This document shows positions 14,811-64,000 of a stretch of DNA of 64,000 bases, one piece after another. How positions within the stretch are numbered: the first letter of the stretch is position 1; every line of letters begins with the position of its first letter. The stretch is from positions 32,185-96,184 of the forward strand of contig JBEKSD010000003.1 of the NCBI GenBank assembly GCA_049517335.1. The letters are read 5' to 3'. This DNA is from Candidatus Omnitrophota bacterium. Lineage in GTDB: Bacteria; Omnitrophota; Gorgyraeia; Gygaellales; Profunditerraquicolaceae. The notes under the pieces are model-generated. The model was given only the letters and a program-made list of their open reading frames with translations. It made no database searches and was not told where the DNA came from. The position numbers and the translations under genes are program-made.

Positions 14811-14826
14811 AAGGTTCCCCCTTTTC

Positions 14827-17162: not shown

Positions 17163-17175
17163 TAAGACCTCCTTA

Positions 17176-18376: not shown

Positions 18377-18392
18377 CTTTCTCCTTTTTTTT

Positions 18393-18435: not shown

Positions 18436-18595
18436 AATTTTAAGGCAGTTTAGAGTCGTACCTTAGGACACTTTACTGCAGCCCTCCTTACAATGGGCTA
18501 CCGGGCGAAGCATATATTTTACGGTTATATCCATTCTAGCCCTCCTTTTGGATTAAAGATACCATATTAGTATCATTTGTCAAGAAAAATTTTTC

Positions 18596-18623
18596 TTGTA
18601 ATTCGGCACTTTAACAATATAAT
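18596..18623 (+). promoter_or_regulatory. sigma70-like promoter (TTGTAA-N16-TATAAT) whose -10 ends 9 nt before the ATG, suggesting a leaderless transcript; a 9-bp inverted repeat caagaaaaa/tttttcttg (18581-18598) overlaps the -35
   Basis: Read directly from the sequence. There is no SD between the -10 and the ATG at 18632. Confidence 0.4.
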
Positions 18624-18631
18624 TATGACTA

Positions 18632-19695: not shown

Positions 19696-19696
19696 A

Positions 19697-20104
19697 TTAA
19701 AGGACCCCTTTCTCTTCCGTACTTAGCGAAACAAAAATAACGCCCGTAAGTATCAGTAATATCCCTAGCCACCTGAGTAAGCCTATCTGTTCATGAAGGA
19801 AGATTATAGAAACTACCGGGACGAGGATATAGCTAAAGCTTGCTATCGGGACAGCGACGCTTAAATCAATCTTGGAAAGAATCGTTGACCAGATAACAAA
19901 GGTAAGGAATACCGATAAGAAAGCAATCCAGAGATAAGGAGAAAGAGAGACAGTCTTAAGAAATATAATAAGCTCGGAAAAACTGGATATTCCAAGCCTG
20001 TCCGCGTTTAGTGCGCTTTTTTTAAAACAAAAGTTCGTAAATGTTTCCAGAAAATCGGAGAATATTAAAAACGATAATATTGTAATAGTCAGTTTTTTCT
20101 TCAA
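19697..20104 (-). CDS. small 4-TM EamA/SMR-like membrane protein (ArnE/ArnF-like flippase subunit)
   Basis: 135 aa with the C-terminal motif WLGILLILTGVIFVS. It is divergent from the DegT aminotransferase gene. Confidence 0.55.
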   Translation of the reverse strand: MKKKLTITILSFLIFSDFLETFTNFCFKKSALNADRLGISSFSELIIFLKTVSLSPYLWIAFLSVFLTFVIWSTILSKIDLSVAVPIASFSYILVPVVSIIFLHEQIGLLRWLGILLILTGVIFVSLSTEEKGVL

Positions 20105-20120
20105 CGCTTCTCCTTACTCC

Positions 20121-20149
20121 TTGAATTTCAGAGTATTTTAGCATAAAAT
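20121..20149 (+). promoter_or_regulatory. sigma70-like promoter TTGAAT-N17-TAAAAT for the DegT gene
   Basis: Read directly from the sequence, 22 nt upstream of the ATG. Confidence 0.45.
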
Positions 20150-20170
20150 AGAAAAAAGGCTAATTATAAT

Positions 20171-45390: not shown

Positions 45391-46331
45391 TTTTTCATTT
45401 TCTCCAGTACCTGAAGCCTCTCGGCAGCCTTTGCCGGCCAAGAAGTTTCGGAATAATTATTTATTATATCATTATAATAAATAATGGCTGCGTTATAAGC
45501 CTTCTCTTTTTCGTAGAAACGGGCGATATCGTAGCAGCTGGCCGCCTCTTTTTCTTTTAAAGCCGCAATATTCTTCTCCGCTTCCTGAGACAAAACTGCG
45601 TCGGGATGATCCCGGGCAAACTCCTCAAATTTCTGTTTTGCTTCCTGCATCGCGCCCTGATCATACTCCGGTCCTTGGGATTCTGCTGCGCGGCAGGTGG
45701 CTATCTGGAACCTTGCGGCAGTAGCCCATTCGCTGGAGGGGTAATTTGAGATAACCTTGCCAAACGCTTCCTCTGCATCATAATAACTCAGCTGCTTTTT
45801 TAAAACAAGCCCGAGCATATACTCTGCCTTTGGCGCAAGCGGACCGTAAGTAGAGTTTTCAACTACTTTAGTAAAGATTTCAATAGCCGGGTTCTCAACC
45901 GGTAGAGTAACCCCCAGCGCTTTCCTTTTCGCGCCGTTCATGAAATCTTCTGCGATCTTATACTCACGCCTGATTATTTCCTGGATCCTTTCAGAGAAAG
46001 GATACTTATCGATTACTTTCTGGTAGGCCTGATACGCCTCGTATATATTACCTTTTTCTTCCTCAATTAAACCGATATAATACTGCGATTCGGAAGCCTC
46101 AAAGGACTTAGGATAGGCCTTAAGGAGTTTCTTGAACTCGCGTATCGCGTCCTCATATTTCTTTATATCATAGAAACTTTTGGCATACTCAAACTGCTCT
46201 TTAGGAGTAGATTTGGGTAAGCTTTTAGGATTTACGAATTTCCCGCTCTTAGGAGTCCAGATCCAATAAGGATAGGCCGGGGTTAAACCCAAAGTAAGAA
46301 GTAAAAATATTATTAAGATGCTGCGCTTCAT
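45387..46331 (-). CDS. TPR-repeat lipoprotein, BamD/YfiO-like
   Basis: A signal peptide is followed by several TPR-like helices (YEDAIREFKKLLKAYPKS..., ...YEAYQAYQKVIDKYP). Confidence 0.5.
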   Translation of the reverse strand: MKRSILIIFLLLTLGLTPAYPYWIWTPKSGKFVNPKSLPKSTPKEQFEYAKSFYDIKKYEDAIREFKKLLKAYPKSFEASESQYYIGLIEEEKGNIYEAYQAYQKVIDKYPFSERIQEIIRREYKIAEDFMNGAKRKALGVTLPVENPAIEIFTKVVENSTYGPLAPKAEYMLGLVLKKQLSYYDAEEAFGKVISNYPSSEWATAARFQIATCRAAESQGPEYDQGAMQEAKQKFEEFARDHPDAVLSQEAEKNIAALKEKEAASCYDIARFYEKEKAYNAAIIYYNDIINNYSETSWPAKAAERLQVLEKMKK

Positions 46332-46340
46332 AATGTTTTA

Positions 46341-46369
46341 ACTTTAACATACGGCGGGGATTTTGTCAA
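46341..46369 (-). promoter_or_regulatory. sigma70-like promoter TTGACA-N17-TAAAGT, with the -10 ending 10 nt before the ATG (leaderless candidate)
   Basis: Read directly from the sequence on the minus strand. Confidence 0.4.
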
Positions 46370-46482
46370 CCCGTCTAGAACCAATTCAAACTGCCTCCCA
46401 AGTCCAAATAAAGATTATAATTCAAGCACTCTAACGAATCCCTATTATAGCAAAGATTGGCAAAAAGAATACAAGAATTACA

Positions 46483-46566
46483 TTTACTTAAAATGTCTTT
46501 ACGGGAAATCGCTAAAGCGTTTAAGATAAGTAAAGGAACTGTCTTTAAGGCATTTAAATATCTGAA
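46483..46566 (+). pseudogene. 27-codon remnant of an HTH (resolvase/transposase-type) DNA-binding domain
   Basis: Translation gives MSLREIAKAFKISKGTVFKAFKYLNHS*. It resembles the C-terminal HTH of serine recombinases or IS OrfA (LSLREIAK.FGVSK.TVYR). It lies in an AT-rich intergenic islet. Confidence 0.35.
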
Positions 46567-46783
46567 TCATTCCTAGTAGAAAACTGTCGTTTTTTGTCCG
46601 ATTTTTTAAGGCCTTAAATTACGTAACTCTTTTGTATGCAATAAGTTAAGAATAAATAACGCATCGAGCTATGACATTAGTTCCTAGATGTATTAGTTTG
46701 CAGGTTAGCGTCGGCATTATATAAACCTAGCTTTTTATTCTCTACAATAAGAAGTTTAGCTACTCTTTACGGTATTTCCAGCT

Positions 46784-47152
46784 TTATTCTCCTTTGCTTC
46801 TTTCATTCTCTATCGGATAAATTCTAAAAGCACCATATCCTTGGCTATGTATATAATACTCATCACCATCTAGCTTTGATTTAACCCTTAGTGGCTTATC
46901 TCTCATTATGAAGTCTGTCTTACATATACAAAAATGCTTAAAAGCTTCTTCTGACGAAATTATTACACCATTACTTTTCGTCTCCCTACTTCTTTTTATT
47001 ATCCCTTTAGACTGAGGAGATATTTTTGTTTCTTCTATTCTTCCTGGCTTAACTTCAATCTCGCTATCTTTCTTCGTTAAATCGCTTCGACAATACCTAC
47101 ATTTTATCGCTTCATCTTGGATTTCCTCGGCACAAAAAGGACATTTCTTCAT
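46784..47152 (-). CDS. zinc-ribbon protein of unknown function
   Basis: CPFC...CRYC at the N-terminus. The likely start is MKKCPF. AT-rich. Confidence 0.35.
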
Positions 47153-47368
47153 GATATACCTCCCTGTTTCTTTTATCCACCTGCTCAAAGGCTTTGGGGT
47201 TATTAATTAGCTCTGAGGGAAAGCAAGTATGAAAGTCTTACGAAGAGACTTATTTTCTGGAATTATCTATATTCCATTTTGGCATATTTCATCTTGGAAT
47301 ATATCATATTTATATAAGACAATCAAGATAAATAGGAAGGTAAATATGGATAAAACGGCTGGTTTATT

Positions 47369-48382
47369 CTATGCGTGTGTTTCAGTAAATTTAATGATAT
47401 GTTCCATCATATCAACGCATTCTATAGGATACAAACCGACTGCGGTTTCTGCGGAAAGCATCACGTAATCCGAACCGTCCAATATGGCGTTAGCCACATC
47501 TGAAACCTCCGCCCTTTCAGGGATACGATTCTCAGTCATACTCTCCAGCATCTGAGTAGCGGTAATGACAAATTTTCCTGCTCGGTTACATTTTCTAATT
47601 ATCTCTTTTTGAACTATCGGCACCTCATATATAGGGATAGAAACTCCCATATCCCCTCTTGCGACCATAATCCCATCGCAGACTTTGATTATTTCATCAA
47701 TATTTTTAATGCCTTCCCGGTTCTCGATCTTTGCAATGATCTGACATTTATGCGGATAATTCTTAAGATATTCTCTAATAATAACGATGTCATCCTTACT
47801 TCTTACAAAAGACTGGGCTATATAATCAATTTTATTCTCTATACAAAAACGTATATTCTCCTTGTCTTTTGCTGTCAAATCTTTAAAGCCAATTTTAACG
47901 CCGGGCATATTAATACCCTTACGCTCCTTAATTAGCCCGGGCATAACCACCCTAGTCTTTAATCTATTTCTTTGGCGCTCTAAAACTAAAAGAGCAATAT
48001 TGCCATCATCAATATAAATATGCTGGCCTTTTTTGATCTCATTTAAAGAGTCTTTGTAATCAAACGGTATGAGGCTACCTTTTCCTAAAGTATTCTCTTG
48101 CGTTAACCAAATGACCTCCCCTTTTTTTACTTTGATAGCCTGACCTACCTTTAGTCTACCAACCCTTATGCGGTAACCTTCTAAATCTCCCAATATTTTT
48201 GTATTTAGGCGATATTTTTTATTTAGTTTTCTGATGAGCCGTACCAGATGCAAATGAACCTTTAGGCTAGAGTGAGAGAAATTTAGCCTTGCCACATCCA
48301 TACCAGCACGCATCATCTTTAAGAGGATACTTTCTTTTTTTGAAGCAGGGCCTAAAGTGCAAATTATTTTAGTCTTTGTCAT
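47369..48382 (-). CDS. pyk: pyruvate kinase, A (TIM-barrel) and B domains only; the C-terminal effector domain is absent
   Basis: The PK motifs [25 protein letters not shown] and TATQMLESM are present. The protein ends at ...[26 protein letters not shown], the usual A/C domain junction. Confidence 0.7.
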
Positions 48383-49164
48383 TTACGAATTTTCCCCTTA
48401 TGATTCTTGAGGTTTTTCTCAATACACCTATAATCTTCGATTTCGCAATGCAATTGTTTATTGATTATCTCTAAAGCGCGAGATGTTGTTTCCATTTGGA
48501 TTCTTTTCTTTTGAATACGGTAAAAAATATAGCCGAAGACAAGAAATACAAGAAAAAATAATCCTATCAGCACCAGTAAATTTCTTAAATTCCTATGCAG
48601 CGGGACGGTAAGCGCGCTGAGCCTTTCTGTTACGACAACAGAATAAAGGCCATTTTGCCCCTGTAGGTGGGCAAAGGCAAATAGTTTCATTTCTTTCTTC
48701 GGCTTATCGTCCTTTGTAGGGAACAATAAAATTGCTGTCCCCGAACTGTTAGAATTCAGCTTTTTCATAAAAGCATTTAACTGAGACAATTCCTTTGCGT
48801 TCAATACCTCTTTGCCGACTTCAAGAATATTTTTACCTACGTGCCTTTTAACCGGATCGCTCAAGATAGTATGATTATTATCCATAACAAAGGTGGTAAA
48901 TCTTTCTTGATCATTTATATGTTGTATAAGCTTGTCTATATACCCGGGCTCTTGTTTAATTCCAAGAACCCTGCTTTCAATATCATGACTAGCTGACTTG
49001 GCAATAATCAGAAGTTCACGTAACTCCGCGTTAATAACAGAACGCTCAAAATCAAAATGATTAATCCATCCTAAAGTTAAAATACTACCCACAAACAAAA
49101 CAGCTAAGGTAAATAACAGCGCATTCCTGAAGCTGATAACTTGCCTAGCTATTCTTTTTATCAT
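48379..49164 (-). CDS. membrane protein with a periplasmic sensor-like (Cache-like) domain between two TMs and no output domain
   Basis: TM1 lies at residues ~15-35 and TM2 at ~195-220. The fold assignment is tentative. Confidence 0.3.
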
Positions 49165-50012
49165 TTTGTTACCCCCTGCCCTATACGAGAGACTCTCGCA
49201 ACAAAAATTACTACTCCAAATACAATCATCACGAAACAGAGGATTTGCCCCATACTAAACGGACCTACAATAAATCCTAATTGCTGATCTGGTTCACGAA
49301 AGAACTCTAAAAAGAACCGTATCACTCCATAGCCGATAAGATAGAAAGAGAAAAGCGCTCCAGGAATCCGCACCTTCTTACGCAGGCTCCAGAGAATAAT
49401 AAAAAGAAATAGCCCCTCAAATAACGCTTCATAAAGCTGGGATGGATGCCGTAATTGACGCATAGGGTCTAAAGGAAAATACATACCCCAGGGCACACTA
49501 GTAACGCGTCCGTAAAGTTCGCCATTAATAAAATTTCCTAATCTGCCAAAGGTATACCCTAAAGGAACAGCGGAAACGAATAAATCCGCAAGTATCCAGA
49601 AATTCAACTTAAACTTACGGCAAAAAATTACCGAGGCAGCAATTATTCCTATAAGGGCACCATGATAACTCATTCCGTATAGCCCTATATAGTGGAATCC
49701 GTTATTAATATCAAAAGGTAAGATGATTTCTAAAGGATGCTTAAGGTAATAGGATAAATTATAAAATAAAACATACCCTATCCTGCCGCCGGTTAAAAGA
49801 GCAATAGTTATCCAAAGAAAATAAGTGTCTATAGACTCTTTTTTAAATTCAATCTTTTCGTTTTTCAGCCTATACAAAACAAACAAATATACGGTAAGAA
49901 AAGCCAAAAGATACATCAGCCCATAATAATGCACCTGTACCGGGCCTATTCTAAGTGCAATAGGGCTAATGTGTTCAGGAATATGTTTCCACAAGCTAAT
50001 GAATTCTTTCAT
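49161..50012 (-). CDS. lgt: prolipoprotein diacylglyceryl transferase
   Basis: 283 aa and multi-TM. The Lgt signature G103-like region reads GRLGNFINGELYG. Confidence 0.85.
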   Translation of the reverse strand: MKEFISLWKHIPEHISPIALRIGPVQVHYYGLMYLLAFLTVYLFVLYRLKNEKIEFKKESIDTYFLWITIALLTGGRIGYVLFYNLSYYLKHPLEIILPFDINNGFHYIGLYGMSYHGALIGIIAASVIFCRKFKLNFWILADLFVSAVPLGYTFGRLGNFINGELYGRVTSVPWGMYFPLDPMRQLRHPSQLYEALFEGLFLFIILWSLRKKVRIPGALFSFYLIGYGVIRFFLEFFREPDQQLGFIVGPFSMGQILCFVMIVFGVVIFVARVSRIGQGVTK

Positions 50013-52942: not shown

Positions 52943-53317
52943 CTAAAAACTGGTTATATTTTTGCATTGGTCGATCCTACGCATAACCTTGAATCTGTTA
53001 TTTCTTACACGTTCCATAATTAGTTTATATGGTCTGCCTTTCTTCCATGGGATCTTAAAGTTTTCTCTAAGCCATCGACCAATCTCTTTATGGCACAATT
53101 CTCTGCAAACATGATCCCAAAAAGATTTTTTATCAATATTCACTCGAATTCCATCATATTTTCCCTTTAATATCAAAACGATATATTTCCATCTTTTATC
53201 GAAGTAAGCATCTCTATCCTTAACCCTTATTTTTATACCATATCCTGCGCCTGTAGAATAATGCTTACCATTATTCCATACGCTTACTATTATTTTTCTC
53301 TTCAGCGCTATACTCAT
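52943..53317 (-). CDS. hypothetical protein
   Basis: 124 aa, basic and AT-rich. No motif was recognised. Confidence 0.3.
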   Translation of the reverse strand: MSIALKRKIIVSVWNNGKHYSTGAGYGIKIRVKDRDAYFDKRWKYIVLILKGKYDGIRVNIDKKSFWDHVCRELCHKEIGRWLRENFKIPWKKGRPYKLIMERVRNNRFKVMRRIDQCKNITSF

Positions 53318-53341
53318 TTTTCTATAATTTATTGATAAAAT

Positions 53342-53932
53342 CTAAAATTTAGGCGACGATTCTTGCTGCTGTTTGCTTTGTTGTGATTCAAGCTCAACAT
53401 CAATATATGAAACAGAGTAATAATTCACTTCGTGATCAAATTGTTCACCGAATTCCTCGTCAATCCCTAGGATAGTTTTTCCGTCATTCCACTCTATTGA
53501 TTTTCGCACAGCATCTTCTTTGCCTGTTCCATATTCTTGTTTTGCATTAGAAATGAACTCATCCCAAGAAGGATGATATTGATAAGAGTACTGTATGGAT
53601 ATGCCGTATAATCTCCCATTGAAAAAAGAACAAAACACCTGATAAACATTAGGGACTTCTTTCATAGTCCCCCCATTGTCGATATTGTACATCCGTGAAT
53701 AAGCCAGATATGGCCTTCCCGGTATTTGCTGATAAGTTACTTTAGATTTAAATTCTTCCTCGCTCATCCCCAGAGTTAGATCTTCGAAGTTTCTACTTAT
53801 CGGTTTTTTAACAGTGGCACCATTACCACACCCAATAAGAAATAACATTGGTATGATAAAAATAGTTATGACCTTCTTCACGGTTCCTCCTTGTTCAGAG
53901 TATTTAACGAATTCTATTAAGGCAGATATCAA
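53342..53932 (-). CDS. hypothetical lipoprotein
   Basis: TM plus lipobox (FLIGCG). Confidence 0.35.
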   Translation of the reverse strand: MISALIEFVKYSEQGGTVKKVITIFIIPMLFLIGCGNGATVKKPISRNFEDLTLGMSEEEFKSKVTYQQIPGRPYLAYSRMYNIDNGGTMKEVPNVYQVFCSFFNGRLYGISIQYSYQYHPSWDEFISNAKQEYGTGKEDAVRKSIEWNDGKTILGIDEEFGEQFDHEVNYYSVSYIDVELESQQSKQQQESSPKF

Positions 53933-53974
53933 TGTGTTCCCGGGAACTTTAGGAAAAGGTTATTTAAGGTTTAA

Positions 53975-56362
53975 TTAAACTACGATGTTAACCAGCTTTT
54001 TTGGGACGATGATGAAATTCCTAATAGGCTTTCCTTCCAGCCAGGATTTGATTTTCTCATCGGAAAGAACGAAGACTTTGAGCTTATCTTCGGACAGATC
54101 CGCGGGAATATCCATCTTCGAACGAACCTTCCCGTTTACCTGAATTACTATTGTCACAGTATCCTCAATTAACATTTCGGGGTTAAACTTAGGCCACTCT
54201 GCTTTAAATATACTGTCGCTATTACCTAAAATATGCCAGAGCTCTTCGGCAAAATGCGGAATAATCGGGGAAAGTAGCAAAACAAGCTTACTAAAAACTT
54301 CTTTATCCGAGCCCTGCTGATAAATTGCGTTGGTGAGCTCCATAAGAGAAGCGATTGCGGTATTGAATTTAAACTCCTCTACATCTTCAGAAACCTTTTT
54401 TATCGTTTTATGCATTATCCGGATGAGTTCGGGGCTGGCTTTACTTTTTAAATTATCCTGAATGCGCCAGACACGGTTTAAGAATTTAAAAGCTCCTTCG
54501 ATCCCCCGGTCATCCCATTCCAACTCTGTCTCAGGAGGTGCGGCGAATAAAATAAACAACCGTAAAGTATCGGCACCATATTTTGAAATTATGGAATCGG
54601 GATCAACGATGTTGCCGCGCGATTTTGACATTACCTCCCCGTCTTTTAAAACCATACCCTGGGTTAAAAGGCGCTTGAACGGCTCCTCGAAATTAATCAT
54701 CCCGAGGTCTTTAAAGAATTTGGTAAAAAACCGGGAATATAGCAGGTGCAATATCGCATGCTCTATCCCGCCGATATACTGGTCCACCGGCATCCAGTAT
54801 TTTGTTTCTTTCATGTCAAATGGCGCGCCCTCAAATTTCGGGGAACAGAATCTTAAAAAATACCAGGAAGAATCAAAGAAAGTAGCCATGGTATCTGTCT
54901 CACGCCGCGCCGCACCCTTACACTTCGGGCATTTTACATTGACAAATTTTTCTACCTTCCCCAGCGGGCTGCCGCCTTCTCCGGTAAACGGAGCAGCACT
55001 CGGCAATTCTACGGGTAAATCTTCGTAAGGCACAGGCACAACTGCACATTTCGGGCAATAGATCATGGGAATAGGTGTGCCCCAATAACGCTGGCGCGAG
55101 ATAAGCCAGTCACGCAGGCGCCAGTGCGTCTCAATTTTACCTATCCCTTTCTTCTCCATCCATTGCGCAATCTTTATTTTTGCTTCCTGATTTGACAGAC
55201 CATTAAATTCTCCGGAGTTAACCTGGATACCATCGCCTTCATATGCTTCATCCATTGCCTCAAGAGAATCCGGGCCCTTTATTACGATGCGCATGGGTAG
55301 GTTATGCTCTCTGGCGAACAAAAAGTCGCGCTGATCATGCGTAGGCACGCTCATGATCGCGCCCGTACCGTACTCCATCAGCACATAATCCGCAATCCAT
55401 ATCGGCATTTCCTCATTATTCACCGGGTTAACCGCGAAACATCCGCTGAATATCCCTTCCTTCTTAACATCCGAAGAGGAACGTACGACTTTGCTTTCCT
55501 TGGAAACCTTCTCGATGAATTTCAAAACTTCTTTTTCCTGAAAGTTCCCCTTGATGAGTTCCTTGACCAAGGGATACTCCGGGGCTAAAACAATATAAGT
55601 TGCCCCGAAAATAGTATCTACGCGCGTGGTAAAAACAGGAATGATCTTTTCTGAATTTTTGAGGCGGAAATAAATCTGCACACCCTGGCTCTTCCCGATC
55701 CAGTTCGACTGCATGGCCAGGACCCTTGAAGGCCACTGTCCCAACTGATCTAAATCTTCCAGAAGCCTTTGGCGGTAATCGGTGATCTTCAAATACCACT
55801 GCTCAAGGTCCTTCTGTTCGACCTTGGTATTGCACCTCCAGCAGCCGCCGTCAACAACCTCCTCATTGGCAAGCGTGGTTGAGCATGACGGGCACCAGTT
55901 GACATTTGAGGCTTTCTTATAGGCAAGCCCGCGCTCAAACATTTTTAAGAATATCCACTGGTTCCATTTATAGTAAGACGCATCAGAGGTAGAAATTTCC
56001 CTTTCCCAGTCATAAGAAAAGCCCATCTTTTTAAGCTCAACGCGCATCCAATCAATGCATTTATGCGTCCAAGCGTCCGGCTTGGTCTTATTCTTAATCG
56101 CGGCGTTCTCCGCCGGCTGGCCGAAAGCGTCAAACCCCATGGGATGCAATACATTAAAACCCTGGATCATCTTGACCCGGGCTGCGGCATCCGCGATGGT
56201 GTAATTACGCACATGACCCATATGAATTTTTCCCGAAGGATAAGGAAACATCTCAAGCAGGTAATATTTCTTCTTATCCGGATTTGCGCTGACATTAAAA
56301 ATACGCATCCTTTGCCAGCATTCCTGCCACTTTTTTTCTATTTCTCTAAAATTGTAATCCAT
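53975..56362 (-). CDS. leuS: leucyl-tRNA synthetase
   Basis: HMGH (…GKIHMGHVRNYT) and KMSKS (VMSKSRGN) motifs in a 795 aa protein. Confidence 0.95.
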   Translation of the reverse strand: MDYNFREIEKKWQECWQRMRIFNVSANPDKKKYYLLEMFPYPSGKIHMGHVRNYTIADAAARVKMIQGFNVLHPMGFDAFGQPAENAAIKNKTKPDAWTHKCIDWMRVELKKMGFSYDWEREISTSDASYYKWNQWIFLKMFERGLAYKKASNVNWCPSCSTTLANEEVVDGGCWRCNTKVEQKDLEQWYLKITDYRQRLLEDLDQLGQWPSRVLAMQSNWIGKSQGVQIYFRLKNSEKIIPVFTTRVDTIFGATYIVLAPEYPLVKELIKGNFQEKEVLKFIEKVSKESKVVRSSSDVKKEGIFSGCFAVNPVNNEEMPIWIADYVLMEYGTGAIMSVPTHDQRDFLFAREHNLPMRIVIKGPDSLEAMDEAYEGDGIQVNSGEFNGLSNQEAKIKIAQWMEKKGIGKIETHWRLRDWLISRQRYWGTPIPMIYCPKCAVVPVPYEDLPVELPSAAPFTGEGGSPLGKVEKFVNVKCPKCKGAARRETDTMATFFDSSWYFLRFCSPKFEGAPFDMKETKYWMPVDQYIGGIEHAILHLLYSRFFTKFFKDLGMINFEEPFKRLLTQGMVLKDGEVMSKSRGNIVDPDSIISKYGADTLRLFILFAAPPETELEWDDRGIEGAFKFLNRVWRIQDNLKSKASPELIRIMHKTIKKVSEDVEEFKFNTAIASLMELTNAIYQQGSDKEVFSKLVLLLSPIIPHFAEELWHILGNSDSIFKAEWPKFNPEMLIEDTVTIVIQVNGKVRSKMDIPADLSEDKLKVFVLSDEKIKSWLEGKPIRNFIIVPKKLVNIVV

Positions 56363-56751: not shown

Positions 56752-56776
56752 ATTTATCCTCTTAATATATAATAAG

Positions 56777-56849
56777 TGGAGCTGAGGGGGATTGAACCCC
56801 TGACCCCTTGCATGCCATGCAAGTGCTCTCCCAGCTGAGCTACAGCCCC
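56777..56849 (-). tRNA. tRNA-Ala (anticodon GGC)
   Basis: The manually folded RNA is GGGGCUGUAGCUCAGCUGGGAGAGC-ACUUGCAUGGCAUGCAAG-...-GGUUCAAUCCCCUCAGCUCCA. It has a G3:U70 pair, the anticodon loop AUGGCAU and no encoded CCA. Confidence 0.85.
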
Positions 56850-56912
56850 GAAATTAATCTATTGACCTTTGTTATTTTAGAATATAAAATAAGCTCCGTC
56901 AATCTTAATCTT

Positions 56913-56995
56913 GCCGAGGTGGTGGAATGGCATACACGTCGGTCTCAAAAACCGATGAGTTCACGCTCGTGAGGGTTCAACTCCCTCCCTCGGCA
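56913..56995 (+). tRNA. tRNA-Leu (anticodon CAA), type II with a long variable arm
   Basis: The acceptor stem is GCCGAGG/CCUCGGC. The anticodon arm is UCGGU-CUCAAAA-ACCGA. The T-arm is GAGGG-UUCAACU-CCCUC. The RNA is 83 nt. Confidence 0.85.
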
Positions 56996-57015
56996 TTATC
57001 TTTTTCTCTCCTCGT

Positions 57016-58101
57016 CTATAAATCTCCATTTTTGCCTTTCTTTGGCATAACTTTTGGCATAAGACCGGTATCTATTTTTGTTATCTCTAATCCCCGTGCC
57101 ACATTCTCCGGCGTAGCGTGTGCGTAATATTTAAAAATAGTTGCGCTATCCTTATGCCCTGTTATTGCCTTTACCACTTCCACATTGGCTGTATTATCTA
57201 AAATGTTAGTTACTACCCAATGCCTAAATATATGGTTAGTGATATTCTTTTTTATGTCTAGCTCCTTACAGGCACGCTTTACATAATTTAATAACAGGTC
57301 TTTCCCTATAAAATCTGTTCCTTTATGGAATGGCGGGTAGAGCAAACCATCGGGCTTATATTTCTTCATCTTCTTCAGGAGGATTATGTGTTCATTAAAA
57401 ACCATACAATCCTGATCCGTTAATTTTGCTGGTCTTGGCTCTGTTTTAGCATTTCTGATATACACAATCTTGCTGGCTAAATCCACATCAGAAATGAGCA
57501 TTTTCCTAAACTCACTCCTTCGCCATCCTCTAGTAATAACGAAATATATCCAAGCGTAGAAGTAAGGTTTATTCTTATAAAACCATTTAAGAATCTTTAA
57601 CCGTTCTTCCTGAGTAGGCAGAATCCAAACTTTCTTCTCAAAAGGAAAACTCCTTATTTCCTTGGGGTCAAACTTTGTAACCAGTCTTTTATTTAATGCG
57701 CTCTTGCCTATTTCCTTCAGATAATCAAGGTCTCTATTTATGCCTGATTTTGACCTTCCCTCATCGTGTTTACTGTTTTTGTAGTCGTTAAGTAGGCTTT
57801 CTGAATAATCTTCCATTGATTGTCTTGACCGCTTCTGAAGAAATATATCAAAGTGATGCACTGTCTCCAGAAATACTTCTCTCGTAGCATCAGAGGGTCT
57901 CTTGCTTTCTAAAACTTGTAAGGCAAAATCCTTGAAAGCAGTATCTTTAGTTAATATCCCCCCAAGTTCCCGCCTCCCAGCTTCATCCTTGGCATCTTTT
58001 TTCCCAGGATATTTGCTTTTGGGGATAGTGGCAAATTTCTGCTTACTATCAACCATCCACCAAATACGCCAACTATTTTTCCGTGAAACTACTCCAGCCA
58101 T
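57016..58101 (-). CDS. int: tyrosine-type site-specific integrase
   Basis: The C-terminal catalytic motifs HIFRHWVVT (HxxR) and GHKDSATIFKYYAH (catalytic Tyr) are present. The gene is adjacent to the tRNA. Confidence 0.85.
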   Translation of the reverse strand: MAGVVSRKNSWRIWWMVDSKQKFATIPKSKYPGKKDAKDEAGRRELGGILTKDTAFKDFALQVLESKRPSDATREVFLETVHHFDIFLQKRSRQSMEDYSESLLNDYKNSKHDEGRSKSGINRDLDYLKEIGKSALNKRLVTKFDPKEIRSFPFEKKVWILPTQEERLKILKWFYKNKPYFYAWIYFVITRGWRRSEFRKMLISDVDLASKIVYIRNAKTEPRPAKLTDQDCMVFNEHIILLKKMKKYKPDGLLYPPFHKGTDFIGKDLLLNYVKRACKELDIKKNITNHIFRHWVVTNILDNTANVEVVKAITGHKDSATIFKYYAHATPENVARGLEITKIDTGLMPKVMPKKGKNGDL

Positions 58102-58105
58102 AAGT

Positions 58106-58270
58106 TTATTGCTTGCCGTCCTTTTTCATTTTACTTAATACTTCAGCTAAGTCATATCTGTGATTTCTCCCAATTACGAGAGCAGGAATTATTCCCTTCC
58201 TCCTGTAATAATCAACCATCGCTGGGGAAATCTTTAATTCCTTTGCCAATTCTTCCTTATCAATAAGCAT
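58106..58270 (-). CDS. xis: excisionase/AlpA-like HTH DNA-binding protein (54 aa; not in the ORF track)
   Basis: Manual translation gives MLIDKEELAKELKISPAMVDYYRRKGIIPALVIGRNHRYDLAEVLSKMKKDGKQ*. It lies directly upstream of int. Confidence 0.65.
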   Translation of the reverse strand: MLIDKEELAKELKISPAMVDYYRRKGIIPALVIGRNHRYDLAEVLSKMKKDGKQ

Positions 58271-58273
58271 TTT

Positions 58274-58849
58274 TTAACCCTCCTGTTTTACCAAAATTCG
58301 CTTTCCTAATTGCCTGTTCTTTTTCCTAATTCCACTGTATCGCAAATAATACCCCCCTGTTGCTCTCGGTCTTTTATCTTTACTTCCAAGATGCCTCCCA
58401 AGCTTAATCCCATCTCTTTTTGCTCTTTCTAAACCACTGATTACCCTACTCCTGATAATTTCCCTCTCCAACTCGCCAAAAACTCCCAAGAGTTGCCAAA
58501 ATGCTTTAGACACAGGGTCATCTGCCTTAGCGGTATCAATATTGTCCGTAACAGATACTAACCTAATTTTCCTATTCCTAAATTCTTGGAATAAATTCAA
58601 GAGGTGTGATAGGCTGCGGGCTATGCGGTCTAATTTATAGATTACAATAACATCGAATTTCTTATTCCTCATATCAATTAAAAGCTGATTTAATTGCGGT
58701 CTTGATTCTTTGGCGCCGCTAACGCCAACGTCAACATATTCCCTAAAGACCTTTATCTTATGCTCACGACAGAAATCCCTAGGTGGCAATAGCTGTGTTT
58801 CAGCAACCTGTTTGCCTGTAGAGACTCTGCCATAAATTGCTCCCAACAT
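58274..58849 (-). CDS. serine recombinase (resolvase/invertase family)
   Basis: AIYGRVSTGKQ is the catalytic Ser motif, inside the resolvase N-terminal domain. Confidence 0.8.
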   Translation of the reverse strand: MLGAIYGRVSTGKQVAETQLLPPRDFCREHKIKVFREYVDVGVSGAKESRPQLNQLLIDMRNKKFDVIVIYKLDRIARSLSHLLNLFQEFRNRKIRLVSVTDNIDTAKADDPVSKAFWQLLGVFGELEREIIRSRVISGLERAKRDGIKLGRHLGSKDKRPRATGGYYLRYSGIRKKNRQLGKRILVKQEG

Positions 58850-58984
58850 AAAACCTCCTTTACTTATTCCGAATTACCCCTAGTAGGGTTTAGTTATATA
58901 AAAAATAACCTATAAATCTGTACCCCCAAAGGATTATTTTATCTTTGAAAATCATGGTCACGGAACTTTGGGGAAAACAAGAAG

Positions 58985-59200
58985 TTACCAAAATCCATTA
59001 GGCTCAGAAATTGGTATTTTTAATTTTCTCCTGCTCCTTTTTATGCGAGAATCTTGTTCAAGCTTGAATCGGCAAAAAGGACACGCCTCTGCGCTCACGC
59101 CATTCTTTAATATTTCCTTATCTGGATACCACCAACCACCACAAGTCTGACATTCCTCCAAATTTACCTTAGCCTTTGCTCCTAACGGTTCTTTTTCCAT
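58985..59200 (-). CDS. small zinc-finger protein
   Basis: CQTCGG...CPFC in 71 aa. Confidence 0.35.
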   Translation of the reverse strand: MEKEPLGAKAKVNLEECQTCGGWWYPDKEILKNGVSAEACPFCRFKLEQDSRIKRSRRKLKIPISEPNGFW

Positions 59201-59280
59201 CTGATTCCTCCTTGTTAATTAAATTATTCCATAAATAAATCAAATTACTAACCCCCACTTTGTTTAAATAAAGTCTTGAT

Positions 59281-59309
59281 AAAATAAAAACCCAGTCTTA
59301 AAGACTGGG
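59281..59309 (-). terminator. rho-independent terminator downstream of the 59343-61274 gene pair
   Basis: The stem cccagtct/agactggg is followed on the minus-strand RNA by UUUUUAUUUU. Confidence 0.55.
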
Positions 59310-59342
59310 TATAAAAATTGATTTTAGTATTATACTTAGTTC

Positions 59343-59927
59343 TTAATCGTATTTCTTACTATAAACAATCTCCTTGATTGTCTTAATTGTTCTATGATAT
59401 TTACGTGATAGCCAATCAATAGCATATGAAGGTTTATCTCCTCTTTTCCTCAGTTTCTTAAATTCTGCCCTAATCTTTCTTTTATACTCAAAATAGTCAA
59501 TATTTTTAAGGGCTCCGTATTTGAATTTTCTTCCTTTTAATGATTTTTTGATTTCAGGCAAATAATCTCTTATATCTCCTGAATTTGCCCATTCGGGGAT
59601 AGATAAATTAATTTCTGCATCTTTACCTTTTGATTCCACTTTGAGCCCTTTAAGAACTGGTTTATTACCCCTGAAACCTTGAAGCCCCCATTTTAAACAA
59701 AGCCGACTCATAGCAAAAAATGCAATCATATATTTTCTTTTTCTTAGATGATTAAGATTTAAATCCTCTCCGGCTATCTTCTTTAATTCTGACAAGTCTT
59801 TTTGAAATTCGGGTTTGGACTCTAACTCTCTTAGTTTAGCCTGAAGTCTTCTAACATATGGAAGGTAAATGATTTTAGGCGGGCAATTCCTATTAGCTAA
59901 TTCTTTTAACGCTTCTTCCTTTTTCAT
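59343..59927 (-). CDS. hypothetical highly basic protein (island cargo)
   Basis: 194 aa and K/R-rich. No motif was recognised. Confidence 0.35.
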   Translation of the reverse strand: MKKEEALKELANRNCPPKIIYLPYVRRLQAKLRELESKPEFQKDLSELKKIAGEDLNLNHLRKRKYMIAFFAMSRLCLKWGLQGFRGNKPVLKGLKVESKGKDAEINLSIPEWANSGDIRDYLPEIKKSLKGRKFKYGALKNIDYFEYKRKIRAEFKKLRKRGDKPSYAIDWLSRKYHRTIKTIKEIVYSKKYD

Positions 59928-59936
59928 AATGTATAT

Positions 59937-61274
59937 TTACGACTTATTTTTTCTTTGTTTCTTTTTTAATTGCTTAATTCTGTATTGCTCTGCTTCTACT
60001 ATTTCTTTTGCATATGTAACCATTTTATCGTATTCTTTCTTTCCTTTCGCCTTATTAACGAATAATGATAAATCCTTAACACCTTGTTCCATATCATAAA
60101 ATTTATAACCTATAATGCCCATTGCAAATAAGAAAGCAATTTCATTTTTATTCTCCTGATATCGCTGATTAAAGAATTCCAGGAGTTGGGGTATATATAC
60201 ATCAATTACAGTAAAAGATATGACCTTCTTATACCAAAATAATGCCCTATCATAGTTCTTTTCCAATAGCATAAAAAAGGCATTATTGAGGAAAACCACT
60301 GGGTGTTCTTTTTCAATCTCGCTTGCTTTAGCAGTATACCCTTTGGCTTTATTTAAATCTCCCAAGAAATATTCTAATCTTGCCAATTGGATATAAACAC
60401 GGAAATGATTTATCGGAAGCCGCAGTAGCTCTATGAAACATTGCTTAGCCACTCTATATTCTTTTTTTTCAATCAGCTCTTCTCCTATCAATATGTATAA
60501 TTCGCTGATGATTACGTTAATTCTGCCTTCAATAAGAGGTTTAAAGGTATCGGGTTTCATAGCTGCCAACATCTGTTGTAGACCGTTAAATAATTTTAAC
60601 GCATCGCGCAACCTATTATCAGTAAACAGATGTATTCCAAAAATGAAAATCCCAGCTTCGACAAAGTTATCAGCAACCTTTATCTCTTCAAATAATGTGT
60701 TGTCAATGTTGAGTATCCAATCACGAGTTCCAGCAATCAAAGCTAAATCGGCATTAAACAGCAACATCTTATTTTTTAACCACTGATTTAGCCTATAAGT
60801 ATAATTTAAGCTGAAGCTAACGACATCTTTACCTTCCTTTGTTTCAACGAAAGCGCTGCCCCAAATAATTAAATCCACTCCTTGGTTCTCACAATATTGA
60901 ACCGCTTCTTCACGTTTATTAATAATATCGGAAGCTATATTAATTATTTTCACTTCCTTAGAAATATTAAAATTATCAAGCTTAATTCTAAGCTTTTCTA
61001 ATACTTTTTCGAAATGTAATTTTGACTTATCATCTGTTTTAATGCAGAAAATCAATGTGTATTTATTGGTAGGCAAAATAAATCTTCCGCTTTTACAGAA
61101 CCAAAACGCCATCCATAAAAGAATTAAGGCAGGAGCAATATATAAGACGAAAGGAATTTTGATTATGTAGCATATTAACGAAATTAACAAAATACCACCC
61201 AATAACCCACCAATGGTTTTGGGTTCTTTCTTTAATGAACCTAAAGCTAAATCAAATAGTCCTTTCATACCCAT
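59937..61274 (-). CDS. membrane-anchored (2 TM) protein with an alpha/beta region and a C-terminal TPR-like helical domain (island cargo)
   Basis: Hydrophobic helices lie at ~20-60. The alternating beta/alpha pattern is LIFCIKT...VKIINIAS...DLIIWGS. The C-terminus is helical and repeat-like. Confidence 0.35.
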   Translation of the reverse strand: MGMKGLFDLALGSLKKEPKTIGGLLGGILLISLICYIIKIPFVLYIAPALILLWMAFWFCKSGRFILPTNKYTLIFCIKTDDKSKLHFEKVLEKLRIKLDNFNISKEVKIINIASDIINKREEAVQYCENQGVDLIIWGSAFVETKEGKDVVSFSLNYTYRLNQWLKNKMLLFNADLALIAGTRDWILNIDNTLFEEIKVADNFVEAGIFIFGIHLFTDNRLRDALKLFNGLQQMLAAMKPDTFKPLIEGRINVIISELYILIGEELIEKKEYRVAKQCFIELLRLPINHFRVYIQLARLEYFLGDLNKAKGYTAKASEIEKEHPVVFLNNAFFMLLEKNYDRALFWYKKVISFTVIDVYIPQLLEFFNQRYQENKNEIAFLFAMGIIGYKFYDMEQGVKDLSLFVNKAKGKKEYDKMVTYAKEIVEAEQYRIKQLKKKQRKNKS

Positions 61275-61433
61275 ATTTTGTTTTTACATTATACCACTAT
61301 CAACCCAAATATGGCGGGTAAATAAACTATTAATTGTTTGGTTTAGAAACTAATGAGTAGGTATCGACGATAAAGCTTAATTACTTTTATAGGGGGGTTT
61401 ATTTGGCAAACCTAAGGAGTATTTATATAGAGG

Positions 61434-61940
61434 CTATTCCCAACCTTTTATCTTATAGTCAAAGGTTATTTTCTTAATCTGCGGGTTGCTTTCATATTTA
61501 TTAAGGCACCGCTTGTCCATCTTGAAGCCTTTTTGCCTATTTATTCTACACTGTCTTTCAAATTCTACCCAAGGCAATAGATACATCCGTATATTATTAG
61601 CATCATCAATTGAATCAACTACGACAGCAAGATAAGGCTCACAATCAAAGATTTTGCAGGCAGATAATACTTCTCTTTTGCTTGGGATGGTTACATTGCT
61701 ATAAGCTTGCCCTCTTTCACGGGTGCGGGCTTTAACACTTATGCCTAGCCTTTCTTTTGTCTTCTTGTTATACGCTATTAAGTCAATTCCAATATAATCA
61801 ACATTAACAACCTCATAGCCATACTTAGATAGCCAATACATCAGCATAGCTTCGCCAAAGTCGCCAGCAATCTTACTATGCCTTGAGCTCTTTCTTATTT
61901 CCATGTAAAGGATTGTATCACCTACTTTAGTGGGTGTCAA
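61434..61940 (-). CDS. small PD-(D/E)xK-fold nuclease-like protein (Hjc/Mrr-cat-like core)
   Basis: The pattern G..GE..L...L.K.G..V is followed by GIDLIAY (Asp) and ISVKAR (x-V-K), which matches the restriction-endonuclease-like core. The assignment rests on the motif pattern only. Confidence 0.4.
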   Translation of the reverse strand: MTPTKVGDTILYMEIRKSSRHSKIAGDFGEAMLMYWLSKYGYEVVNVDYIGIDLIAYNKKTKERLGISVKARTRERGQAYSNVTIPSKREVLSACKIFDCEPYLAVVVDSIDDANNIRMYLLPWVEFERQCRINRQKGFKMDKRCLNKYESNPQIKKITFDYKIKGWE

Positions 61941-61972
61941 TATGTGGAATTTTATGGGAGAATTGGAGCGTG

Positions 61973-62182
61973 GAAAATATTAATGCTGGATTTGGAAAAC
62001 ACTTAAAAGACCTACGCAGAAAAAAGAAGATAACTCAAGAGGAGCTTGCGGAATTGGCTAACTTGGAATACAAATACATCCAGCGCCTTGAGGGTAAGAA
62101 GCCTTCTTCTCCTACCTTAAACACCTTAGAGAAACTTGCCAAAGCCTTCAGTATAACTCCTTCACAATTACTTAAATTTTAA
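61973..62182 (+). CDS. XRE-family (Cro/C1-type) HTH transcriptional regulator
   Basis: The HTH reads LKDLRRKKKITQEELAELANLEYKYIQRLE. The probable GTG start is at 61973. The ORF track begins at the ATG at 61934, which overlaps the divergent gene. Confidence 0.65.
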   Translation, partial: ENINAGFGKHLKDLRRKKKITQEELAELANLEYKYIQRLEGKKPSSPTLNTLEKLAKAFSITPSQLLKF

Positions 62183-62186
62183 TTAC

Positions 62187-63401
62187 TTATTTCTCTTTAT
62201 CCTGTAATTTTGATAAAGAAACGGATTTTTTGGATTCAATCTTTAAAAAACCTTTAATTTTAGTCATTATCTTCTTATCCCATCTTGATTCATTAACGGC
62301 TTTTTCAACTGCATAGGTGTCTATATCAGCGACTTCATCCCACTTGCCGGCTTCCTTTAACGCTTTTGATAATTCTTCCCGTTCTTCGCTTCCCTTAGGA
62401 GGACAGGAAACTTTCTGTTTTTCGGCAACTTTAAGCTTATTATTGTTGCCTATGATAATGCTGGATTTTTCTTCTTCGGCATACTGGATAACCGCTTCTT
62501 TTACCTTATCTATTTCCTCATCTATTTTGTCAATCTCTCCCTGTTGCTCACGCTTCTTAGCTACAAGCTTAGCGAAAGTATTTACAAGCTTTACGCCGCT
62601 GTCTTTTAGGTATTCATTTACAGGTAGAGCTTCCACTTTATAGAGGTGCTTTCTCTTGGGGCAAAGGTCAGGATATACGCACCATTCGCAAAGGCTACTT
62701 TCATTCGGTAGGAATTCCTCTGTAGCTTCAATCTTATCAATTAGGACTGCCGTATCATTCTTTAGCTGCTCCAATTGTTTATCAGTCCTCACAGAGGACA
62801 TTTCCTTGTCAAAAACCACATAATGCCAGATTAACTTGACCTTATTGACATCATTCCAAGTGTCGCTTATGCCAATTTGATACAGAGCAAGCTGTCTATC
62901 CTCATCAAAATGCGCCTGTCCGGGCAAGGATCCGGAAGTCTTATAATCATGTATCTCATAAGTATCGTCTTGTGCTTGGGCTAGCCTATCTATGTAACCC
63001 CTAAGCTTATATTTACCGTCCCCATTTAAGTCAATCAAAACCTCCCTCTCAAGACCTAAGACCCTGCTCTGGTCAAAGGGAGAATAGCGCTTATAATAAT
63101 CCTCAATGCATTTCCTGCCTATGTTTTTGTAGTCCTCAGCGGTTCTATCTTTCTTAGTAACAATAATAGTATCGTTATATTCCTTATCCCATTGGCTTTC
63201 ATAATAACCCAATAGCTCCTTTAAGGAATATGTCTTGCATTTAAGGTCTTTATAGAGTTTCTGCATGGTTTCGTGGAAACGAGAACCCATAAATGCCTCA
63301 ATGCCTTCTTGTTCACGCTCAATCTTATCTATGTAGGAAAACTTATACCGGAGAGGACAGGATTCAAAACTATTTAATCTGGAATGGGAATATATAGGCA
63401 T
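62187..63401 (-). CDS. Cas4-like / RecB-family PD-(D/E)xK exonuclease with a 4-Cys Fe-S motif and a KE-rich C-terminal tail
   Basis: The N-terminus reads YSHSRLNSFESCPLRYKFSYID. The RecB motif is IHDYKTSG. The C-terminal Cys triad reads LCEWCVYPDLCP. Confidence 0.6.
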   Translation of the reverse strand: MPIYSHSRLNSFESCPLRYKFSYIDKIEREQEGIEAFMGSRFHETMQKLYKDLKCKTYSLKELLGYYESQWDKEYNDTIIVTKKDRTAEDYKNIGRKCIEDYYKRYSPFDQSRVLGLEREVLIDLNGDGKYKLRGYIDRLAQAQDDTYEIHDYKTSGSLPGQAHFDEDRQLALYQIGISDTWNDVNKVKLIWHYVVFDKEMSSVRTDKQLEQLKNDTAVLIDKIEATEEFLPNESSLCEWCVYPDLCPKRKHLYKVEALPVNEYLKDSGVKLVNTFAKLVAKKREQQGEIDKIDEEIDKVKEAVIQYAEEEKSSIIIGNNNKLKVAEKQKVSCPPKGSEEREELSKALKEAGKWDEVADIDTYAVEKAVNESRWDKKIMTKIKGFLKIESKKSVSLSKLQDKEK

Positions 63402-63463
63402 ATTATTTTTGTTTATTTCCGCCTACCCAAAGATTGATAGGTATTAGTTTACATGCTTTTTAC

Positions 63464-64000
63464 TTACCTTTTTCTTCTGATAAATTTTCTTATTACTTCG
63501 TTAAGATTTATTCCCAAACCAAAAAAATTTGGTTTTAATTCAAGCATATCGACATTATCACCGATTTTAGTTTTAATTTTCCCTTTCCTACCAACAAAAT
63601 CCTCTAAACGTCCTGCGAGATTTGATAGGTCTCTCATATCAATAGCCATGCCTCGACCTTGTTCATATAATTCTTCAACTAATCTAAAGTTTTTATTGTC
63701 GTAATCTTTATCCTCATATCTATTATGCCAAATTTCACCATAGCGAATATCGAGATCCGTGGCTGTTTTATATAAATTCCTAATTCTTTTCACGTGATGA
63801 ACTTTAACTTCCTGTTGTATCTCACTTAGTATTTCAGAGATTTCTTTAATACTTGTATCATAAAATTTTAAGGAATATTGTACTATACCTTGAAAGTCAC
63901 TGTCTACTTTTTTCCAATATTCTAATTCTTTAAGTTTTCGAATATTTTTAGAAATAATTGTAGTAACTTCTTCAAGATTCTTAATCCATACCTGTAAGTC
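63464..64000 (-). CDS. hypothetical protein, 5' end beyond the window
   Basis: The reading frame stays open upstream of the GTG reported by the ORF track (...SEIQQEVKVHHVKRIRNLYK...). It is probably cotranscribed with the Cas4-like nuclease. Confidence 0.35.
   Translation of the reverse strand, partial: DLQVWIKNLEEVTTIISKNIRKLKELEYWKKVDSDFQGIVQYSLKFYDTSIKEISEILSEIQQEVKVHHVKRIRNLYKTATDLDIRYGEIWHNRYEDKDYDNKNFRLVEELYEQGRGMAIDMRDLSNLAGRLEDFVGRKGKIKTKIGDNVDMLELKPNFFGLGINLNEVIRKFIRRKR

Follow-up and report, generated by a model that had tools for sequence, protein, structure and literature searches.

Does the block of genes behind the tRNA-Leu(CAA) gene of a Candidatus Omnitrophota bacterium belong to the ancestral chromosome, to a prophage or to another kind of mobile element, and does it carry genes that protect the host against phages? 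Here we describe this locus, which closes a 64,000-nucleotide (nt) stretch of contig JBEKSD010000003.1 (hereafter the window, in whose coordinates island positions are given). LeuS of the host, compared with species representatives, has its best match at 79% identity and places the host in Candidatus Omnitrophota. We conclude that the block is probably a small integrative element, one of a family in Omnitrophota, inserted in the 3′ end of tRNA-Leu(CAA) and composed of an integrase, an excisionase-like protein and a resolvase (the backbone), together with an XRE-family regulator and swappable cargo. An initial annotation of the window had reported the tRNA, an integrase 20 nt further on, a 54-residue helix-turn-helix (HTH) protein, a serine resolvase and a list of cargo genes, all of which are present where it had put them. 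Its proposal of an integrase-bearing integrative element at tRNA-Leu(CAA), with a right end past the window, is borne out by composition, by empty sites in relatives and by related elements.

The locus could be followed beyond the window in a JGI metagenome contig, Ga0427963_0003231 (L001), which encodes the 404-residue nuclease of the island, matches the window without a difference over 11,814 nt and continues for another 2,706 nt. Positions past 64000 are therefore virtual (66707 minus the L001 coordinate), and L001 ends at virtual position 66706. A Logan contig (L088) is shorter and identical to the window, and scans of genome and metagenome contigs with the SIR2-like protein described below and with exact 40-mers found no further extending contig. 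The element thus measures at least 9.7 kb, from 57016 to at least virtual position 66706, with 15 genes visible (Table 1).

Foreign DNA behind a conserved tRNA gene

The G+C (GC) content of the island is 34.7%, compared with 42.5% for the host, in which windows of 9.7 kb range from 39.7 to 44.8%. Its tetranucleotide distance from the host (0.0232) is twice that of any host window (maximum 0.0108). Stretches of low GC (0.35–0.38) also occur at 46000–50000 and 53000–54000, in housekeeping genes. The former was considered as a second island and rejected; it holds the genes for pyruvate kinase (47369–48382) and Lgt (49161–50012).

The order LeuS, tRNA-Ala(GGC), tRNA-Leu(CAA) is kept across Omnitrophota and is frequently joined, in the window too, by a response-regulator gene. 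About 26 of 40 relatives have a GDSL lipase gene at most 7 kb past tRNA-Leu, placed either directly behind it or after FeoB. An RlmN-like radical-SAM gene usually comes next, and in many cases an AMP-ligase gene as well. Neither the window nor its extension contains the GDSL lipase, RlmN-like or FeoB core genes. Conversely, the island genes are found in none of the fetched relatives except for two distant matches outside family-type elements: a homologue of the resolvase in the island of L038, and an XRE-type open reading frame (ORF) in L018, situated on the LeuS side of its tRNA. The genes are thus not conserved at this locus among these relatives, and no cargo protein matches a housekeeping family in Pfam or NCBIfam. 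Because the GC content is foreign, the tetranucleotide distance exceeds that of every host window and core genes directly follow the same tRNA in relatives, we interpret the block as an insertion.

The site itself has received other DNA. In L038 (Omnitrophota metagenome-assembled genome (MAG) Go_SlDig_bin_84), a different island lies about 1–6.5 kb past the same tRNA-Leu(CAA) and carries genes for a large serine recombinase, an RloB-like protein (E=2e-47) and an AAA_21 ATPase (E=1e-40). Since several relatives, L038 among them, carry other, unrelated genes there, tRNA-Leu(CAA) is an integration hot spot.

A family of related elements in Omnitrophota

Integrase homologues of 43–69% identity each have, at a tRNA-Leu gene, a small HTH protein and a resolvase as neighbours, and the cargo differs each time. 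The integrase, excisionase-like and resolvase genes are conserved in all five integrase lineages examined, with an XRE-type regulator throughout. More widely, 33 homologues of the integrase were found at E<=1e-10, and every one with a named source comes from Omnitrophota. The small ORF adjoins the integrase in every relative examined (36–46% identity to the 54-residue protein in the four with DNA), and a resolvase is present in all of them (34–46% identity in those with DNA).

The sister element L082 (ENA ERZ1742237 NODE_1652, positions 1–9600) also occupies tRNA-Leu(CAA). Its integrase, excisionase-like protein, resolvase and XRE regulator are 68%, 44%, 46% and 54% identical to those of the window, and the regulator is syntenic, as is a small nuclease-like protein of 167 residues. 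This last gene is common to the window and L082 only, with 28% identity over 60 residues (E=1e-5). The other cargo of L082 comprises a 614-residue primase-like protein with a DnaG-type zinc ribbon, encoded between the excisionase-like gene and the resolvase, as well as MauJ-like, radical-SAM and nSTAND3 NTPase proteins and two small ORFs. Two further copies lie next to LeuS. One, on the contig that holds P0003 (integrase 69% identical), is accompanied by an HTH_17 protein, a resolvase and an XRE regulator, as read from its gene table only. The other, on the 68-kb contig that holds P0005 (integrase 49% identical), has a 56-residue protein, a resolvase and an XRE regulator. This element is complete and spans about 8.4 kb, from FeoB/GDSL lipase to its integrase; L085 shows the tRNA pair at this site.

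The most distant copy, L086, lies at a different gene, tRNA-Leu(CAG), and its integrase, excisionase-like protein and resolvase are 43%, 36% and 34% identical to those of the window. Here both ends can be seen. A 15-nt sequence, GTGCGGAAGGAGGGA, contained in the final 17 nt of the tRNA has a single exact second copy, 7.0 kb away in an intergenic gap (estimated chance expectation about 1e-3). The two repeats bound about 7.0 kb of lower-GC DNA that encodes a 62-residue ORF, the resolvase, an HTH protein, a 712-residue protein, a tetratricopeptide repeat (TPR) protein and small ORFs. Separately, about 2.6 kb from this element, L086 has a transfer-messenger RNA (tmRNA) gene followed by genes for a Dam-type methyltransferase, ParB_N and MJ0330_N proteins and a second tyrosine recombinase (13840–14249 and 14485–21032); the tmRNA gene may hold a second island.

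No account of this element family turned up in a limited search of the literature. A preprint on Omnitrophota mobile elements deals with different, much larger elements. The family thus appears undescribed, although the element is of an ordinary kind.

Target site and recombination genes

tRNA-Leu(CAA) is a long-arm tRNA of 83–85 nt whose acceptor stem is fully paired, as judged by alignment with relatives. Its 3′ end, approximately CTCCCTCCCTCGGCA, is presumed to be the core of attL. A motif, CTCGTC[TA]ATA(A), begins in the 20-nt spacer, crosses the stop codon of the integrase and ends at about 57021. It is common to three occupied sites, reading CTCGTCTATAA in the window and L085 and CTCGTCAATAA in L082, and is missing at the compared sites that lack a family-type integrase. 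The motif may be an integrase-binding site, or it may mark a conserved C terminus or gene end of the integrase.

All island genes in the window lie on the minus strand except that for the XRE regulator, and the integrase faces inwards, towards the tRNA. The integrase contains the motifs GWRRSE (residue 192), AKT (218), HIFRH (290), GH (315) and FKYYAH (323) at the expected spacing, so that the full R-K-HxxR-H-Y set of catalytic-type residues is present (R194, K219, HxxR 290–293, H316 and Y326). The resolvases of the relatives are 176–198 residues long and, like the window copy considered below, have no recognisable C-terminal HTH (L082 copy at 6459–7007). The resolvases of the window and L082 have a conserved basic tail in common, GSKDK..R..GY[YF]LRY.

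Cargo and regulator within the window

Three putative minus-strand units are suggested by consensus promoter and terminator matches: one running from the distal genes to the exonuclease, one with the 156-residue, 445-residue and 194-residue genes beside the XRE gene, and one with the zinc-ribbon, resolvase, excisionase-like and integrase genes. The gene calls of the initial annotation were essentially right and call for revision at three points, one of which is the lack of a recognisable HTH in the resolvase. The ORF listed with 168 residues probably encodes 156, from an ATG at 61904, because JGI calls the gene from this start and positions 61940–61912 form a strong promoter-like site. Immediately preceding the ATG, this site reaches into the 5′ end of the divergently oriented XRE gene. 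The last gene, listed as an ORF of 109 residues, is the C-terminal part of an ORF of 196–200 residues with its stop at 63464. The longer ORF has no match in Pfam, PHROGs, NCBIfam, PADLOC or the PDB.

The 156-residue protein has weak similarity to the UPF0102/YraN family and contains the motifs GDFGE, GIDLIA and SVK. The protein downstream of it, of 445 residues, is membrane-anchored according to its AlphaFold2 model (mean predicted local distance difference test (pLDDT) 71), in which two N-terminal transmembrane helices precede an alpha/beta domain (residues ~70–190) and a TPR C-terminal half. Fold searches with this model returned TPR matches only. The family is small: 13 homologues among 5.8 billion proteins, all at least 48% identical, in unrelated neighbourhoods, namely another integrase-bearing element (L089–L091) and a position beside a DUF4062 protein (L092). 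The element of L089–L091 (JGI 3300024353 and others), whose 445-residue homologue is 51% identical, also encodes a 464-residue HTH_17–integrase fusion, a 575-residue TPR protein and many unannotated ORFs.

The basic 194-residue protein has no match in Pfam, PHROGs, NCBIfam, PADLOC or the PDB and none among phages by tBLASTn. It represents a very rare family, with four non-self clusters among 1.84 billion representatives. One homologue sits between RmuC and type I restriction–modification (R–M) genes on one side and a ParB–methyltransferase gene on the other, with a terminase-like gene two genes further on. The 71-residue zinc-ribbon protein has no homologue in the related loci. The 445-residue, 194-residue and zinc-ribbon proteins were considered as a conserved trio, which was rejected, as they do not co-occur elsewhere.

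The 404-residue nuclease is of the phage RecB/Cas4-like exonuclease type. Its residues 4–252 are about 30% identical to RecB-family exonucleases of phages, and four cysteines (C15, C238, C241 and C247) are of the cluster type. A C-terminal extension of about 150 residues has a weak DUF7307 match only. Scans of IMG/VR with this nuclease, the integrase and the 445-residue protein found no relatives, and blastn of the island against phage and plasmid collections found no DNA match.

A SIR2-like protein past the window

Beyond the window, the cargo continues with a SIR2-like protein and an HNH/DnaD-like protein, flanked by small genes. Searches of Pfam, PHROGs, NCBIfam, PADLOC and the PDB gave no or insignificant matches for the proteins of 73 and 74 residues. 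Over most of its length, the HNH protein resembles phage HNH families.

The SIR2-like protein belongs to a family of stand-alone proteins of about 365 residues with an inserted four-cysteine zinc ribbon, which comprises more than 160 clusters across several phyla; named members come from a Muricauda isolate and from MAGs of Cytophagia, Ignavibacteriaceae, WOR-3 and Verrucomicrobiae. In 36 homologues, G14, G16, G20, N166, H210 and the four cysteines are invariant and D168 is nearly so. Sequence matches to known SIR2 domains are marginal (SIR2_2 E=0.055; PDB profile E of about 0.1) despite a clear SIR2 fold in the predicted structure (pLDDT 89, predicted template-modelling score (pTM) 0.88). The closest match to this model is the SIR2 subunit of anti-phage SIR2–HerA (Foldseek E=2.8e-8, template-modelling score of about 0.52), followed by ThsA, DSR2, SPARSA and Avs5; the match to ThsA is weaker and confined to its SIR2 domain. 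By tBLASTn, the protein has no match in phages and only two weak ones in plasmids. SIR2 effectors deplete nicotinamide adenine dinucleotide (NAD+) in phage defence (see, for example, PMC10973363). On the strength of its predicted fold and invariant residues, we infer that the protein may be of the anti-phage NADase class and have NADase activity.

No HerA, TIR, SLOG or STAND partner accompanies the SIR2-like protein, either here or beside its homologue P0055. A conserved module of the SIR2-like protein with the 200-residue protein was considered and rejected: the 201-residue neighbour of P0055 is unrelated, and the neighbours of P0055 include neither the HNH protein nor the 200-residue protein.

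Weighing the explanations

Could the visible genes instead be the lysogeny or early arm of a complete or decaying temperate prophage, with structural and lysis genes past 66706? The genes include those for an integrase, an excisionase-like protein and an XRE switch. Phage families contain counterparts of the RecB/Cas4-like exonuclease and of the HNH/DnaD-like protein (genes of these kinds are carried by other mobile elements too). In Escherichia coli phage Louie, cII and the replication initiator flank a homologue of the HNH protein, and the 194-residue homologue is near a terminase-like gene. Yet the 15 genes visible to 66706 include no structural, packaging or lysis match in PHROGs or Pfam, and all of them except the XRE gene point towards the integrase, unlike the lambdoid layout. 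Moreover, the two complete relatives, of about 7.0 and 8.4 kb, lack Pfam-recognisable structural genes, IMG/VR returned no relative of the integrase, the nuclease or the 445-residue protein, and the phage and plasmid collections gave no DNA match to the island. We therefore consider a prophage quite improbable; of the "prophage remnant or defence island" of the initial annotation, the first half is possible but not favoured and the second is not established. Hardly tenable is the view that the block is ancestral, non-mobile chromosome made of diverged housekeeping paralogues, with an integrase left over from an unrelated event. The low GC of the housekeeping DNA at 46–50 kb fits this view, as does the lack of an observed attR up to 66706. 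It is contradicted by the core genes that follow the tRNA in most relatives, where the island genes are missing from the site apart from the distant L038 and L018 matches, by the recurrence of the backbone with different cargo at other tRNA-Leu genes, by the strongly outlying composition and by the absence of cargo matches to housekeeping families.

The integrative element remains the reading that we prefer, and several points weigh against it. Low GC alone is weak evidence of insertion, because the housekeeping stretch at 46–50 kb is low as well. No repeat of at least 11 nt of the tRNA 3′ end was found up to virtual position 66706 by k-mer and repeat searches, and the right boundary and full size of the element lie past this position, where the sequence ends. 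The resolvase has no C-terminal HTH recognisable by Pfam, and its PDB alignments to Gin and gamma-delta resolvase end at residues 152–166. The SIR2-like protein is without a conserved partner. The role given to the XRE regulator and those given to all of the cargo are read from domains or folds only, and the element is only putatively mobile at the present day.

Drawing on the known behaviour of tRNA-targeting tyrosine integrases, we propose that the integrase acted on an attP site carried by the element and on the 3′ end of tRNA-Leu(CAA) and recombined the two, whereby the element's own copy would have restored the end of the tRNA. The 54-residue HTH protein would act as the directionality factor for excision, and the serine recombinase would probably resolve any multimers that the excised circle forms. 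How the adjoining operon of 156-residue, 445-residue and 194-residue genes is expressed probably depends on the XRE regulator. For the host, the most probable benefit would be phage defence through the SIR2-like protein, to judge from its model.

This raises the question of whether the cargo encodes one or more new anti-phage systems and the element is a mobile defence island, which would be compatible with the integrative-element reading. The candidates are the XRE-controlled cassette of the 156-residue, 445-residue and 194-residue genes and the stand-alone SIR2-like protein with its HNH or transmembrane neighbours. In favour are the SIR2-like fold, nearest to anti-phage NADases and with invariant catalytic-type residues, the nuclease-rich cargo, and the defence-type genes carried by other occupants (RloB and AAA_21 in L038; nSTAND3 and radical SAM in L082). 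A 445-residue homologue lies beside a DUF4062 protein and a 194-residue homologue beside type I R–M genes. However, a search against PADLOC-DB v2 gave no complete anti-phage system, only isolated single-domain matches: a mad1-like HTH, a capH/C-protein-like XRE, Cas4, Aga_SIR2 (E=4e-7) and a PtuB-like HNH. The 445-residue and 194-residue proteins do not co-occur elsewhere, the SIR2 homologue P0055 lacks an adjacent HNH or 200-residue protein, and the element may just as well use the nucleases in its own replication or recombination. We regard new anti-phage systems as possible but doubtful. The undescribed defence system that the initial annotation had suggested here was accordingly not established: the rare cargo proteins have no conserved partners, and the sole clearly defence-like protein, the SIR2-like one, lies outside the window and has no HerA or TIR partner. 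Bolder still, and in our view unlikely, is that the backbone and XRE regulator define an undescribed, Omnitrophota-specific family of 7–10-kb elements that shuttles new anti-phage genes between tRNA-Leu sites, with the cassette, the stand-alone zinc-ribbon SIR2-like protein or both as an unrecognised defence module.

Comparison with known systems

Islands that target tRNA genes are well known from enterobacteria, for example at leuX, selC and pheV. The element resembles such islands with P4- or lambda-type integrases in that its integrase faces the 3′ end of the tRNA and adjoins an HTH protein of the AlpA/Xis type. Atypical composition, variable cargo, an empty orthologous site and, in the sister element L086, a bounding repeat of the tRNA end are further similarities. 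By contrast, the family described here is much smaller (complete relatives of 7–8.4 kb), always includes a small serine recombinase and is found in Omnitrophota, and the element itself is without virulence or metabolic cargo and without recognisable transfer genes. In particular, no relaxase, oriT or type IV secretion genes, as expected of an integrative and conjugative or mobilisable element, were matched in the visible part by Pfam or NCBIfam.

Like phage satellites of the P4-like type (integrase, AlpA and primase) and of the phage-inducible chromosomal island type, the element is small, combines its integrase with an excisionase-like HTH protein and has an XRE-type switch. A primase-like gene is present in the sister element L082, whereas this copy has none: Pfam and PHROGs detect no primase, replication initiator, capsid-redirecting or packaging gene in the visible 9.7 kb. 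We know of no helper phage for the element.

Among the individual proteins, the SIR2-like protein shares the fold of anti-phage SIR2 effectors (SIR2–HerA, ThsA, DSR2, SPARSA and Avs5) and keeps the GxGxxxG, N, D and H positions, but it is a stand-alone protein with a four-cysteine zinc ribbon and has no HerA, SLOG, TIR, prokaryotic Argonaute or STAND partner or fusion. It differs from SIR2–HerA in having no adjacent ATPase, its neighbours being the HNH protein and the 74-residue transmembrane protein, and Pfam and PADLOC detect no SLOG or TIR domain of the kind found in Thoeris. The 404-residue nuclease shares with Cas4 and phage RecB exonucleases the PD-(D/E)xK core, an N-terminal cysteine and the C-terminal CxxCxxxxxC iron–sulphur pattern, and differs from Cas4 in its additional C-terminal region; no cas genes or CRISPR array were found near it.

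Integrative islands linked to tRNA genes are routine, and this element alone changes no picture. It does put on record a family of very small integrative elements, together with a tRNA-Leu/LeuS integration hot spot, in Omnitrophota, an uncultivated phylum whose mobile elements are little described. The backbone with its XRE regulator offers a usable anchor for collecting variable cargo from metagenomes, of which nSTAND3 with radical SAM, RloB with AAA_21, and SIR2-like proteins are examples at these sites. The widespread family of stand-alone zinc-ribbon SIR2-like proteins is a candidate for single-gene NADase defence.

Features of the locus

Table 1 Coordinates of the element and its flanking tRNA genes; positions above 64000 are virtual and were read from L001.
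Feature	Position	Strand	Evidence or remarks
tRNA-Ala(GGC)	56776–56849	−	ARAGORN
tRNA-Leu(CAA), integration target	56913–56995	+	Rfam tRNA 59.6 bits; ARAGORN 56912–56996
Spacer, 20 nt, tRNA-Leu to integrase stop codon	56996–57015		
Tyrosine integrase, 361 residues	57016–58101	−	PF00589 E=1.5e-15; phrog_1 E=5.7e-28
Excisionase-like HTH protein (Xis/AlpA type), 54 residues	58106–58270	−	HTH_17 E=1e-5; MerR E=1.4e-5; PHROG excisionase E=2.6e-6
Small serine recombinase (resolvase/invertase type), 191 residues	58274–58849	−	PF00239 E=5.9e-37; YGRVST at residue 6
Zinc-ribbon protein, 71 residues	58985–59200	−	Two CxxC pairs (C17, C20, C40, C43); below-cutoff PF13453 E=1e-3
Terminator-like hairpin, 3′ of 194-residue gene	59290–59310	−	9-bp stem with 5 GC pairs, then T run
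Basic protein, 194 residues	59343–59927	−	Isoelectric point 10.0; 26% K+R
Membrane-anchored protein, two transmembrane helices/alpha-beta/TPR, 445 residues	59937–61274	−	Hydrophobic residues 19–61; weak TPR matches; AlphaFold2 model
PD-(D/E)xK-like protein, 156 residues (listed as 168-residue ORF ending at 61940)	61434–61904	−	Weak UPF0102/YraN matches, E ~1e-3
Promoter-like site, TTGACA, 17 nt, TG-TACAAT	61912–61940	−	11/12 positions plus extended −10; best in region; consensus match only
XRE-family regulator, 82 residues (70 by another gene call)	61934–62182	+	HTH_26 E=1.6e-12; HTH_3 E=2.1e-10
RecB/Cas4-like PD-(D/E)xK nuclease, 404 residues	62187–63401	−	PDDEXK_1 E=2.6e-32; PADLOC Cas4 E=2.7e-8; phrog_69 exonuclease E=2.9e-30
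ORF of 196–200 residues, C-terminal part in window	63464–64000	−	Full ORF in L001, to 64054/64066
Two-transmembrane protein, 74 residues	64126–64350	−	L001
SIR2-like protein, 372 residues	64387–65505 (L001 1202–2320)	−	Pfam SIR2_2 E=0.055; PADLOC Aga_SIR2 E=4e-7
HNH protein, 255 residues, weak DnaD/DnaB_2-like region	65525–66292	−	PHROG/Pfam
73-residue protein	66300–66521	−	L001
DUF6804 membrane protein, cut by contig end	66555–66704	−	L001

Elsewhere in the window, a thiamine pyrophosphate (TPP) riboswitch lies on the minus strand at 7507–7622 (Rfam RF00059, 62.1 bits, above the gathering score).

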